A stretch of DNA of 63,923 nt, filler included, from Octopus bimaculoides (Eukaryota), in the NCBI RefSeq assembly GCF_001194135.2. It is 5 parts of 5 records of this genome, joined end to end, with 100 filler letters (N's around TTAATTAATTAA, not from the genome) between each part and the next. Parts side by side here need not be neighbours in the genome. Positions count along the whole stretch, not along the records: positions 1 to 28,562 come from NC_069001.1; positions 28,663 to 44,128 come from NC_069000.1; positions 44,229 to 53,698 come from NC_068986.1; positions 53,799 to 60,820 come from NC_069003.1; positions 60,921 to 63,923 come from NC_068985.1. One strand, 5' to 3'. A program made the position numbers and the translations under genes. Under the pieces are notes generated by a model. The model was not told the origin of the DNA and did no database searches. It saw only the letters and a list, made by a program, of their open reading frames with translations. Numbering within the stretch: position 1 is the stretch's first letter; each line of letters opens with the position of its first letter. Positions 21,966-62,060 of this stretch are shown piece after piece.

Positions 21966-22445
21966 GATAACATGGACGCCGCTTGGGATCGAAAGATTGA
22001 CCGATATGTAAACCTCCTCAAGGAATGTAAAGACGCAGGCTGGAAAGCAGAGCATTTCCCAATCGAAGTCGGATGTAGAGGGTTTGTTGGACACAGTGTG
22101 AGACGACTGCTGTTATCATTAGGCCTAACTCATCGTAAGGTAAATACCACCATGACCGATATCCAAAATACAGTGGAGAAGGCTAGCCACTGGATTTGGT
22201 TAAAATGAGACGATGAGAGATGGCTAGAAGTATGTTGAGCTTTATTTGATAACCTGTTGATCTAGCAAGGAGAGGGCCTCATATCAGTGTGTGAGGTGGT
22301 GATCATTGATGCCGTCGAGATGTAGGTCCCGAAACGGCGCGCATTCTCTCCTGATGAGCCCCTACACTTGCTGGCTTCCGGTATGCGGAGCTTTCGACTC
22401 GTAGCACTTGCATGTGCAAGGTGTTTGCAAAACATGCAGTATTGC
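21966..22445 (+). mobile_element. 5'-truncated HERO-like (restriction-like endonuclease, R2-group) non-LTR retrotransposon: end of ORF plus 3' UTR
   Basis: DNMDAAWDRKIDRYVNLLKECKDAGWKAEHFPIEVGCRGFVGHSV...EKASHWIWLK*DDERWLEVC* matches the RLE C-terminal pattern RK..RY..L..EC...GW.....P.EVG.RGF...AS.W.W.KR. TGA at 22206 is probably a decayed CGA; the original stop is at 22236-22238. Confidence 0.8.
22311..22366 (+). ncRNA. Candidate non-circularly permuted hammerhead ribozyme (copy 1)
   Basis: gccGUC 22311-16; stem I gaga 22317-20 / tctc 22347-50; GAAAC 22331-35 followed by ggc (stem III gccgt/acggc); CUGAUGA 22351-57; stem II G22358:C22330 plus tgtagg/cctaca. Confidence 0.65.
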
Positions 22446-22659
22446 TTACATATGAGTAAGTTGACCGGGTTGTTGAGAGTTAAACACTTGGGTCGCTGAC
22501 ACACGCGAAATGAAATTTCTGAAGGTTTTTAAATTTAAACCGTTTGCAATATGCTTTCTATTTTTTATCGCAGTGATTAATGGTTTTTATAGCTCTTGTC
22601 TTCCTCTACAACTTTTCTTTATCGTTGATATTTGAATAAAATCTACCCATTTTCTAACA

Positions 22660-22860
22660 TAGAGGGGACAAACAAGGACAGACAAAGGGGTTAAGTCGAT
22701 TACATGGACTCCAGTATGTAACTGGTACTTAATTTATCGACCCTCGAAAGGATGAAAGGCAAAGTCGACCTCGGCAGAATTTGAACTCAGAACGTAAAGA
22801 CAGACGAACTACCGCTGAGCATTTCGCCCGGCGCGCTAACGTTTCTGCCAGCTCGCCACC
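22660..22860 (-). mobile_element. SINE family B
   Basis: Reverse complement of family B. Confidence 0.85.
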
Positions 22861-22930
<70 letters not shown>

Positions 22931-23304
22931 TGATGATGATGATGATGATGATGGTGATGATGCATGTGTAAGTGTGTGCATGTGTGTGTGTGTGTGTAGG
23001 GCGTGTGTATTTTCATGAATATTACAAAGAGTCTTTGCACAATTGAAGCCAGTCCTTAACAAAGTGACATTCTTCTGCTTTTGAGGTTTATGAGTTTACG
23101 TGTGGGTGTATATATTATATATATATACCGGTCTGTGTTAATATTTATGTGAGTGTGTATATGGTGTTTTTTTTTGTGCTTGAATGAATGTGCTTGTTGG
23201 AGTGTTAGAGTTTGCACTCAAAGATTTAGGTGTACATGTCGATTTAGTACTCGCGTGGATTTTTCCTTTCATTCATATATATTCGTGTGTGTGTGTGTGT
23301 GTGT

Positions 23305-23632
23305 TGTGAAGGCACGTGGCACAGCGGTTAGGGTATTCGGCTCACGATCGTAAAAGCGTGAGTTCGATTCCCGCTGGCGAGTTGTCTCCTTCAGCAAGAC
23401 ACTTTATTTCACGTTTGCTCCAGTTCACTCAGCTGGCAACAACGAGAGGTACTTGTAATTCACGGGGCCGGCCTCGTCACGTTCTGTGTCACGCTGAATC
23501 TCTCTGAGAACTACGTCATAGGTATGCGTGTCTGTGGAGTACTCAGCTACTTGCACGTTAGTTCTACGAACCGGCTGTTCTGTCAGTCGGAACTACTGAG
23601 ACACTCATCGTCATAACCGACGAAGTGCCAGT
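23305..23632 (+). mobile_element. SINE family A
   Basis: tRNA head gtgaaggcacgtggcacagcggttagg...gagttcgattcc, CORE-like segment, tail. Confidence 0.85.
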
Positions 23633-23872
23633 TTCATGTGAATGTGTGTGTGTACGTGTGTTCGTGTGTGTGTATATATCTGTATATATGTATTCATTTG
23701 TTTATGTATACATTAATGTTCGTAAATAACTATGTATGTATGTATTTATATATGTATGTATGTACAAGAAATGAGGGCAGGGAATCGTCAATTAATAATA
23801 GAATTAACAATTAACAATTTTGCCAAGTAGTTCAGTATGAAATAAACCTTTATCGGTAAGACCATTTATCAT

Positions 23873-24113
23873 CATAAATATAAGGGATTAGCAATTGAGT
23901 TGCTTCTCCAACATACTGAAAATTCAGAAACAGCAATCAAAGAACCACTGATTCTAAACTACAAATTTTTCCGGTTTTTTGTTCTATGTGTGCCATAAAT
24001 ATCGCCATCCATTTTAGAGAAAAATTTGTAGTTTAGAATGGTTCTTTGACTGCTGTTTCTGAATTTTCAGTATGTTGGAGAAGCAACTCAATTGCTAATC
24101 CCTTATATTTATG
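23873..24113. repeat. Long inverted repeat (~95-bp arms, 49-nt spacer)
   Basis: 23873-23970 is the reverse complement of 24020-24113 apart from a 4-nt indel and a few substitutions. Confidence 0.85.
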
Positions 24114-58815: not shown

Positions 58816-58981
58816 CACACACACACAGGCATACATATAGTTACATTCACATGTGCGTGCATGTGCGTTTGTGGGTTTGTGTGACTGGCACGTCTTCAGG
58901 AATACAGAGGTTTGTATGTGAAATGATAGTCGGCTGGCAGCTGTGTCGTGAGAGTACGGCTATGTGTGATTGGGTGTAAGG

Positions 58982-59025
<44 letters not shown>

Positions 59026-61421
59026 ACACACACGCATACGCACATACACACACATACACACACACACACACATNNNNNNNNNNNNNNNNNNNNNNNNNNN
59101 NNNNNNNNNNNNNNNNNNNNNNNNNNNNNNNNNNNNNNNNNNNNNNNNNNNNNNNNNNNNNNNNNNNNNNNNNNNNNNNNNNNNNNNNNNNNNNNNNNNN
59201 NNNNNNNNNNNNNNNNNNNNNNNNNNNNNNNNNNNNNNNNNNNNNNNNNNNNNNNNNNNNNNNNNNNNNNNNNNNNNNNNNNNNNNNNNNNNNNNNNNNN
59301 NNNNNNNNNNNNNNNNNNNNNNNNNNNNNNNNNNNNNNNNNNNNNNNNNNNNNNNNNNNNNNNNNNNNNNNNNNNNNNNNNNNNNNNNNNNNNNNNNNNN
59401 NNNNNNNNNNNNNNNNNNNNNNNNNNNNNNNNNNNNNNNNNNNNNNNNNNNNNNNNNNNNNNNNNNNNNNNNNNNNNNNNNNNNNNNNNNNNNNNNNNNN
59501 NNNNNNNNNNNNNNNNNNNNNNNNNNNNNNNNNNNNNNNNNNNNNNNNNNNNNNNNNNNNNNNNNNTCCCACCTATATCATTCATTCACGTCATACACAT
59601 TCGCATTTGATACCATATTTTCCCAAAAAAACTAAAATGTTTATTACTGTAATTGAATAGAAAAGGATAAAATTCGCTTTTTTTTTTCCAGCGTTCCCCA
59701 TTTGGGACTTTTCGAAAAATTAATAATTTCCAAAATGATTCAAATACGAAGAGAATTTAAATACTATATATTATTATCTTAACTCCTAAGACATCCGGCA
59801 AACCGAAAAAAAAAATAGGAATAAAAAAACTTTGACAGTTAATGGGTTAAAAGAAATATGATATAAACAATTGGCATCTCTCCTTCGTGATTTAACAGAA
59901 TATTTATTATATACCACAACGATATCAAGAAGAAAAAAAAAAAGATATATCGCAATTAATATAACACTATCTTGTAGATATTGTTTATGTTATTATCTCA
60001 ATCCCGTTCGACTCCTTTTATACGGGTTATCACCGGAAGTTAACCTTTCGTGCTAAGGTCTTCTATGTTTGGTTCACCCCTTCACCCAATTGTCTCATCA
60101 CTTAGAGGAAGCCTGAAGGTGGTTTTTAACAGACGTGAGGTAGTCGAGAGGAGGCAGAAAGAGAACAGTGATAACTGTGAAGAGAGAGAGAGAAAGAAGC
60201 CATCTTATTTATTAACTATTCATCCAAATCTTTAGATTAATCTTCTGTCGCATTTGCTTTCTTAGCTTTCTAATAAAGCAAACAATATTTCCTCAAGAAT
60301 CAGTTCTGCCTGTCTCATCTATTTGATCGACCGGAAAAAGAGTAAAAAAAATACACAGAAAAAAAACGTGGGGGCGAAAAATAGAACGTTGTTTGATATG
60401 TATATGAATGTATATATATATCTTTATTTTCCATCATTATAAACAAAATGGCGTCGACTTTCTGCTGTCCCCTTGTGTCTTCGAAGGCTCAGAGAATCAA
60501 AGGATAAATGTACTTCTTAGAGAAGTCTCATCAAAAACAGAATAAATAAATAAATGAAATGAAATAAAACCGCCCCCGAACCTGTAAGATAGGTTTAAAT
60601 GTAAACCAGTTTCAATTAGATTCAGTGCTTATTGTTGACAAAGCAATCAAAAGATCTTAACCAAGAACACTATTCGTCTGTCCAGGCAAGCTTTTTTTTT
60701 TTTTTGGTTCTTTTCCTTTTTTTTTGTTTGCTGTTTTATATATTTTCTTCCCCTGATTATCTCCGACTCGAAGCAGTTTTATTTAAATAAACATATCACA
60801 CACTTTCACTCACACTCACANNNNNNNNNNNNNNNNNNNNNNNNNNNNNNNNNNNNNNNNNNNNTTAATTAATTAANNNNNNNNNNNNNNNNNNNNNNNN
60901 NNNNNNNNNNNNNNNNNNNNTATACATTTATATAAAAGAACGCATACACACATACATCTTTTTTCTGTTATCTTTTATTATCCTTGTCTAGTACATGTTT
61001 GAGTCATTAGACTGCGGCCATGCTGAAGCAACATATGTGTGTGCGTGCGTGTGCAAAAACAGAGACAGAGTGTCGAAGCAGATATATTTTAACATAGAGA
61101 GGAAGAGAAACCTCTTAAACAGACAAACTTCTACATCAAATCGTTCTCTAAACACACTCACAAGCGTATACAAAACGCATACAATATGGTAACACACTCC
61201 AGTACTGTAAATACTGAGATGATTTGATACAATCGATATACAACTTGTGTCAAATATTTCAAACTTAAAAGCACGTACCTTATCTCCACAGAAGAATTCA
61301 TCTCCTCCATTGCATGTCTTCAGGGTGTCTTCGAGATAAGGAAGTATATTGCGACACGTTTGCTCAAATATTTTCCGCATATCTGACTGAAAATGTGCAC
61401 AGAGTATTTGAAAGAAAACTT

Positions 61422-61464
<43 letters not shown>

Positions 61465-61488
61465 NNNNNNNNNNNNNNNNNNNNNNNN

Positions 61489-61558
<70 letters not shown>

Positions 61559-61757
61559 TGTCTGCGTGTCTGTGTCTGCTTCTGTGTGTCTGTGTCTGTG
61601 TGAGTCTGTGTATCTGTGTTTGTGTATCTATATATGTATGACCATTTATGTGTATATATATACACATATATTCATGTATATATATATATATATGTATATA
61701 TAAATAATATATATATATACATTTATATATATATACACACACACGCACACACATATA

Positions 61758-62060
61758 TGCATATATGGGTACAGGACGTCACGAACAACAAACAACATGA
61801 AATATGAAACCAAATGAGTTAAATACGCAAACAACATAAGAGAGAAAAATTTGGAAACAGGACAAGTAACACAAAGAATGACCCTTCATCAGTTGTCGGC
61901 TGTCTATCTCCTCCTCATTTTGGGCATTGAATAACAATACGAGTCTTCGTAGACAGTTGCCCTCATAAATATTTATGGAGGATCAAAGTTAGGAACAAAA
62001 CAGGACAATGGAGACATAGAAAGAAACCGAATGAAAACAAATATGGAGAGTCGTTAGACC
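61758..62060 (-). mobile_element. Diverged homolog of the 54770-55066 element
   Basis: Same terminal motif, upstream hairpin and hammerhead block order. Confidence 0.65.
61877..61956 (-). ncRNA. Non-circularly permuted hammerhead ribozyme (copy 3, CpG-decayed core)
   Basis: Minus strand: ctgtcta-cgaaga-ctcGUA-ttgtt-attc-aatgccc-AAAATgag-gaggaga-tagacag-cc-gacaa-CUGAUGA-a-gggtcatt. AAAAT equals GAAAC with two CpG-type transitions. Confidence 0.65.

Follow-up and report, generated by a model that had tools for sequence, protein, structure and literature searches.

The window analysed here, that is, the whole stretch of 63,923 nucleotides from Octopus bimaculoides (assembly GCF_001194135.2; five parts of five records, joined end to end), contains three loci that are almost certainly copies of one conserved six-helix RNA fold. 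In this fold the core of the hammerhead ribozyme has its blocks in a swapped order and is opened between A9 and G10.1. Copy 1 lies in the 3' end of a HERO-like long interspersed nuclear element (LINE), and copies 2 and 3 are likely tails of Naiad elements, a group of Penelope-like retroelements. The split-core motif is a further form of a known hammerhead class, with predicted catalysis. The best overall explanation of the data, to which we assign a probability of about 0.5, combines the split-core fold with cleavage at the joint between element units, religation to a unit-length RNA circle and copying of this circle.

22262..22374, plus strand: motif copy 1, decayed; core intact (N17 22316, G12 22331, C3 22351), P1 partly kept.
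54857..54978, plus strand: motif copy 2, core intact (N17 54919, G12 54935, C3 54963).
54857-64/54970-78 and 54865-70/54890-95, plus strand: P1 and P2 of copy 2.
54896-901/54929-34 and 54902-12/54947-56, plus strand: stem II and P4 of copy 2.
54915-18/54938-41 and 54920-24/54958-62, plus strand: stem III and stem I of copy 2.
61879..61985, minus strand: motif copy 3, with G12A (N17 61938) and the kink-turn signature (described below) kept.
61985-79/61885-79 and 61977-73/61968-64, minus strand: P1 and P2 of copy 3.
61962-58/61926-22 and 61956-50/61906-00, minus strand: stem II and P4 of copy 3.
61943-39/61918-14 and 61937-33/61897-93, minus strand: stem III and stem I of copy 3.

All three loci show the block order cleavage site, GAAA, CUGAUGA (S-G-C), as the first-pass annotation of this DNA had claimed, instead of the canonical S-C-G order of hammerhead types I, II and III. 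The cleavage triplets are GUC in copies 1 and 2 and GUA in copy 3. The hammerhead core (CUGAnGA, GAAA, NUH, stems I and III) is present in copies 1 and 2; copy 3 carries G12A, and the GAAAC ascribed to this locus (61956) in fact reads AAAAU, with a G-U pair in stem III. Given this exchange, copy 3 is likely dead. Stems I and III and the extra helix pair at the three loci as they had been described, and the motifs begin further 5' than had been assumed, at 22262, 54857 and 61985. The view that the block order is more than a product of chance withstood a shuffle control: a descriptor for the swapped order found 2 strict cores in the window, whereas the average over 60 dinucleotide shuffles (1-kb blocks) was 0.05, with 2 strict cores in one shuffle; on the six-helix model, the three cores from shuffled sequence received scores of 0, 34 and 38, compared with 65 for the copy at 54919. 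With one core mismatch allowed, no further copy was found in the window except for an AT-rich background match (score 52). No Rfam hammerhead is among the window matches listed (150 of 227), which were microsatellite-like miRNA models and nothing useful, and the region 54800-55040 gave no Rfam match at E<=10 apart from one chance match. Note that microsatellites are dense across the window.

The strand following CUGAnGA had been assigned to stem II, together with the strand preceding GAAA. In fact, it pairs far upstream (helix P1); next to the upstream P1 strand follow a hairpin (P2), the strand with which the pre-GAAA strand really forms stem II, and the 5' strand of a further helix, P4. The complete order is therefore P1 5' strand, hairpin P2, stem II 5' strand, P4 5' strand, stem III-GUH-stem I, stem II 3' strand-GAAA-stem III, P4 3' strand, stem I-CUGAnGA and P1 3' strand. 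The joint six-helix scores of copy 2 (65) and copy 3 (58) were reached by 0 of 200 upstream shuffles and 0 of 200 shuffles, respectively. The upstream stem II strand and P4 of copy 1 are degenerate, and no six-helix solution was found for this copy.

Using alignment of the C-terminus of the carrier protein, 28 related metagenome loci were fetched; 15 of them possess a strict core, five end too early, six are decayed yet recognisable and two show nothing. Among the strict-core loci, 13 scored 58-85 on the six-helix model, values that 0 of 200 upstream shuffles reached. These 13 loci, which encode a reverse transcriptase (RT), were analysed together with copies 2 and 3. The resulting 15 copies fall into nine groups that are mostly 40-60% alike, and the C-terminal 50 residues of their carriers are mostly 30-60% identical. 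Pairing was found in 88 of 90 cells for P1, 75 of 75 for P2, 75 of 75 for stem II and 59 of 60 for P4 (versus 0.40-0.57 across groups, with 0.40 for P4), and compensatory changes are seen in every helix. Some features are firmer, as the search did not impose them: the G10.1-C11.1 pair, whose G10.1 is provided by the upstream strand, is present in all 15 copies (it is decayed in copy 1), as is G16.2; no unpaired base separates P1 from P2 or P2 from stem II in 14 of the 15, which would give a gapless four-way junction; and all four letters occur directly after A9, each of them paired in P1. In a MAFFT alignment with the structure taken from one member, 90% of the cells are paired and 25 of 41 pairs change on both sides; a second alignment of this kind gave 89% and 16 of 39 pairs. 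Neither result was reached in 500 shuffles. None of the 13 related loci has an Rfam match at gathering score.

Several points speak against this picture of the fold. The four peripheral helices were placed in each copy by the search, and the core with stems I and III served as its filter. Two strict-core loci fit the model poorly, L028 (score 41, reached by 2 of 200 shuffles) and L002 (score 32, reached by 130 of 200), and these two and window copy 1 were left out of the pairing analysis. Furthermore, pairing of the classical stem II amounts to 62.5% in the fish-type copies, and 10 of 500 shuffles matched its covariation score. The motif could be a plain type-SGC hammerhead as it was first drawn, with stem II made from the strand after CUGAUGA and with the upstream helices acting as a switch or decoration. 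The fish-type pairing favours such a structure; moreover, with one base skipped, a C-G pair beside the core is possible in 11 of the 15 copies, and for copy 1 alone, a structure of one G-C pair, an internal loop and six further pairs is possible. However, this register pairs only 26 of 75 cells directly and 42 of 75 with one base skipped, versus 75 of 75 for the upstream partner, it yields no pairs in L001, L002, L004, L005, L018 and L028, and most other copies do no better than shuffles. We regard the plain structure as very improbable and retain the split-core fold; a secondary pairing in the classical register is possible for the fish-type set. In 11 of the 15 copies, G occupies the second position after A9, and in fish-type copies the 3' strand of P1 resembles the upstream stem II strand. 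Both features may record an origin by duplication of the stem II strand of a plain SGC hammerhead, or a switch.

The block order itself is that of the published type-SGC hammerhead (HRIMA-1 and variants), which was described together with a type CSG (Eckert 2023, PMC10085705). The first-pass annotation was thus right in recognising a non-circularly permuted hammerhead-type motif. Cleavage has been demonstrated for type SGC, which has an extra helix between stems I and II, and its examples come from metatranscriptomes only and not from genomes of known organisms (PMC10085705). The window motifs share with it the S-G-C order, the short linker from stem I to the 3' strand of stem II, the full core and the extra stem I-II helix, whose place is taken by P4. 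Unlike in type SGC, block C is split, the 5' strand of stem II and one strand of the I-II helix come from upstream, P1 and P2 enter at A9/G10.1, and CUGAnGA is not directly followed by a stem II strand (PMC10085705). Another difference is that, in 9 of 17 copies of the window-type fold, stem III is connected to P4 by a kink-turn; its signature consists of a C helix, a three-base bulge and tandem GA/AG pairs. It is present in copy 3, copy 2 keeps a single GA only, and the group of copy 1 has none. Type SGC was shown to cut, whereas the window-type fold is a predicted ribozyme, situated in animal retroelements. No published description of the split-core wiring was found, nor any of a ribozyme of this type in HERO or Naiad elements, in the literature outside subscription journals, Repbase Reports and the supplementary figures and alignments of PMC10085705.

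A single extra base at the A9/G10.1 position is tolerated in a viroid hammerhead. If the chain is closed through P1, the cyclic order becomes C-S-G, which would be the same cycle as in SGC, opened between A9 and G10.1. We infer that the sheared-pair domain, P1, P2 and stem II form the gapless four-way junction: P1 and P2 would stack on each other, leaving the core as the junction, and stem II could stay stacked on the A9-G12 pair of the core.

The six possible hammerhead permutations were derived on the assumption that CUGAnGA is inseparable from the adjacent stem strands, and insertions of more than 1-2 bases at this boundary were not known (PMC10085705). The break at A9/G10.1 is without precedent in the literature consulted, which is a point in favour of a fold that no longer cuts but serves as a protein-binding or priming scaffold (with its kink-turn and conserved P2 loop) descended from a hammerhead. 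Genomic copies that keep the whole motif, the kink-turn in 9 of 17 copies and UGAUC in 7 of 17 P2 loops would fit such a scaffold as well. On the other hand, carriers as divergent as those described above preserve the catalytic core in full, together with G10.1-C11.1 and G16.2, and the nucleotide at position 17 can be C, A or U, which is also the case in active hammerheads. A mere scaffold therefore appears improbable to us, and catalysis is probable in the intact members. If so, this would be a hammerhead wiring outside the six permutations thought possible, and the swapped class would move from anonymous environmental RNA into animal genomes. The gapless four-way junction at the core would offer a natural insertion point for RNA engineering, and the RNA is short enough to be convenient for asking about the role of ribozymes in tandem retroelements. 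The window contributes both carrier types side by side.

The carrier of copy 1 can be delimited by a flanking direct repeat:

21851..21961, plus strand: left copy of the direct repeat, 111 bases, 86% identity to 22446-22557.
21963..22445, plus strand: 5'-truncated HERO-like retrotransposon without long terminal repeats (LTRs), comprising the last ~89 codons of a protein with RT and restriction-like endonuclease (RLE), the 3' untranslated region, the ribozyme and 129 bases past the predicted cut.
22446..22557, plus strand: right copy of the direct repeat, marking the 3' end of the insertion.

As this 111-base repeat, likely a long target-site duplication, flanks the insert, the 3' end of the latter can be placed 129 bases past N17. 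Note that the repeat is unusually long for a target-site duplication and that its first part resembles the unit of a neighbouring degenerate tandem repeat (unit ~82-87 bases, 21415-21837), which lies directly upstream of the insert. The region 21963-22229 encodes the C-terminus of an RT protein (tblastn with residues 1062-1150 of P0001, 61% identity), with a premature stop at 22206-22208. The fragment matches the C-terminus of full-length RT proteins, in which the endonuclease and zinc motifs were read by eye. The best solved relatives of P0001 are R2 proteins, and its named relatives come from bivalves, fish, lamprey and amphioxus; the protein family is large (1237 clusters at E<=1e-30 in a large protein search). 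No Pfam family was found for the 79-residue carrier fragment. We take the carrier to be HERO-like on the basis of its motifs and the host range of the matches rather than of reference HERO sequences. The family of copy 1 has the same single open reading frame (ORF) as the HERO clade and R2-type RLE elements, with N-terminal zinc finger, RT, zinc knuckle and restriction-like endonuclease (PMC4640811). In R2, an HDV-like ribozyme is located at the 5' end (PMC3774820), whereas in the family of copy 1 the hammerhead core is located behind the stop codon and genomic copies keep it whole.

Two unrelated carriers had been proposed for the three loci. One of them is indeed the 3' end of an RLE-type LINE, and a second, unrelated carrier type is likely; however, instead of an unnamed non-autonomous family it is probably the tail of a Naiad element, judging from the following sequence comparisons. 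A HERO origin of copies 2 and 3 was rejected, as they have no similarity to the 28 LINE loci. Both copies continue into T-rich tails:

54979..55055, plus strand: T-rich carrier tail of copy 2, ending in a short word common to copy 3, then TA-rich simple repeats.
61766..61878, minus strand: T-rich carrier tail of copy 3, running into TA-rich simple repeats.

Naiads have T-rich tails as well, and (TA)n is the listed target of cephalopod Naiads (PMC8557442). The terminal word of copies 2 and 3, read by eye, is similar to that of cephalopod Naiad consensi. We read by eye ten Naiad 3' ends of ~600 letters each from the consensus file of PMC8557442. Of these, four show all or most of the six helices; their hosts are two octopuses, a squid and a coral, with the record order as the source of three of the names. 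Copy 2 has the same stem I as the octopus Naiad, copy 3 has one close to that of the squid Naiad, and UGAUC occurs in the squid P2 loop. Naiads were reported to be without canonical hammerheads, with eight families flagged as 'half core' (Craig 2021, PMC8557442), and the split-core fold, if real, would answer why they seemed to have no ribozyme.

Other observations weigh against the Naiad assignment. Translations read by eye revealed no Naiad coding sequence or ORF remnant beside copies 2 and 3, where the tails alone are present, and the other six Naiad 3' ends are without the swapped order, three having the canonical C-then-G order and three neither. Copies 2 and 3 match the published octopus Naiad consensus around the core only (PMC8557442), and the 5' boundary of the carrier was not found for either copy. 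Three nematode and spider Naiad tails have CUGAnGA followed by GAAAC across a long insert, which is the canonical order (PMC8557442). Naiads may carry more than one ribozyme layout. A 10-base inverted repeat (62147-62156/61772-61781) brackets copy 3 and may be what is left of the inverted ends that Penelope-like insertions typically have.

The position of the motif within the LINEs bears on its function. In RLE-type LINEs, N17 is located 34-195 bases behind the stop codon, and in 5 of the 13 relatives the motif lies at the joint between the end of one unit and the start of the next. In L008 and L009, a full ORF is flanked on either side by the 3' part of the motif; the start of L008 falls a single base downstream of the predicted new 5' end, and the two copies within this locus agree to 92%. 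L010, L012 and L015 run from the motif into the N-terminal zinc finger of the next unit. The three measurable 3' ends are 90, 91 and 129 bases past N17. As genomic copies keep the whole motif plus 90-130 bases, a simple trimming of the 3' end fails to explain them; rather, the joints in these five loci and the 3' ends past N17 imply a template RNA in which the ribozyme, intact or rejoined, was followed by the start of the element itself. The ~220 bases behind the ribozyme are conserved to ~70% without an open frame (L008 100-330, L009 106-327, L010 3363-3590, L015 2800-3034) and are a candidate for an internal promoter or structured leader. The situation resembles that of the Penelope-like pseudo-LTR hammerheads (PMC4209133, PMC11167929), where the ribozyme likewise marks the joint between tandem units, genomic copies extend beyond it, and priming is internal, a short way into the next unit. 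However, those hammerheads have the canonical order, are often of minimal type I and belong to GIY-YIG elements, whereas the window fold is swapped and split and occurs also in RLE-type LINEs.

In the mechanism that we propose, cleavage would occur 3' of GUH, at the joint between the units of the transcript. The 5' end produced by one ribozyme and the 3' end produced by the next would then re-form a whole ribozyme and ligate to a unit-length circle; the re-formed ribozyme would be expected to ligate because 26-31 base pairs join the two predicted cleavage products (four copies counted). With reverse transcription initiated 90-130 bases beyond the joint and proceeding around the circle, the resulting copies would have a whole ribozyme at their end and would include terminal repeats and tandem units. 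Such a circular-RNA route has not been described for LINEs in the literature found. We consider the chances of a self-ligated circle as RNA intermediate to be evenly balanced. The broader idea of one split-core four-way-junction module shared by HERO LINEs and Naiads, through transfer or a common source, and driving HERO retrotransposition via self-ligated circular RNA, is tentative, and we would not bet on it.

There are also arguments against the circle. The coincidence at the 5' end concerns one contig (L008), and what looks like a tandem run-on in a short-read contig can result from collapsed repeats, which may inflate the tandem signal. Furthermore, for PAc, a Penelope-like element, mutating the ribozyme left insertion in vitro normal, cleavage depended on the protein, and none of the reads terminated at the cut site (PMC11167929). 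An active ribozyme could indeed work without any circle, as proposed for PAc: tandem or partial-tandem read-through transcripts would be made, the upstream ribozyme would trim the 5' end or cut late, and priming would take place within the following unit of a linear RNA that retains its last ribozyme in uncut form. This explains the terminal repeats, the tandem units and the 3' ends 90-130 bases past the cut equally well, and for PAc, priming lies 111-118 bases within the following ORF, with unprocessed RNA being used in vitro (PMC11167929). However, the downstream ribozyme must stay uncut while the upstream one cuts, and the 26-31 base-pair clamp on the products is left unexplained. We therefore hold linear read-through to be a serious but rather unlikely alternative and prefer copying from a religated circle.

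Outside animals, viral contigs gave no protein relative, and the motif pattern had two matches there that form no stems. In prokaryote genomes, two short RT fragments without tails were found; L029 and L030 (2-187) are short animal-type RT fragments in prokaryote assemblies, on a 412-base contig and at a contig edge, and are likely contamination or chimeric joins. Relative to L015 (2661-2778), an 11-base gap spans the predicted cut site in L017 (4738-4844), with one copy of a 6-base word on either side of it; candidate readings are a microhomology deletion or a repair scar at the cut.

Two other features of the window should be mentioned. A frame of 525 codons (3800-5377, plus strand) encodes three C2H2 zinc fingers (Pfam) preceded by a buttonhead-like box, and is presumably an exon of an Sp-family transcription factor. 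Finally, a SINE-like (short interspersed nuclear element) repeat of ~205 bases is present in more than 15 copies in the window, e.g. at 22656-22860, 14303-14506, 17439-17643, 31416-31618 and 54580-54715.

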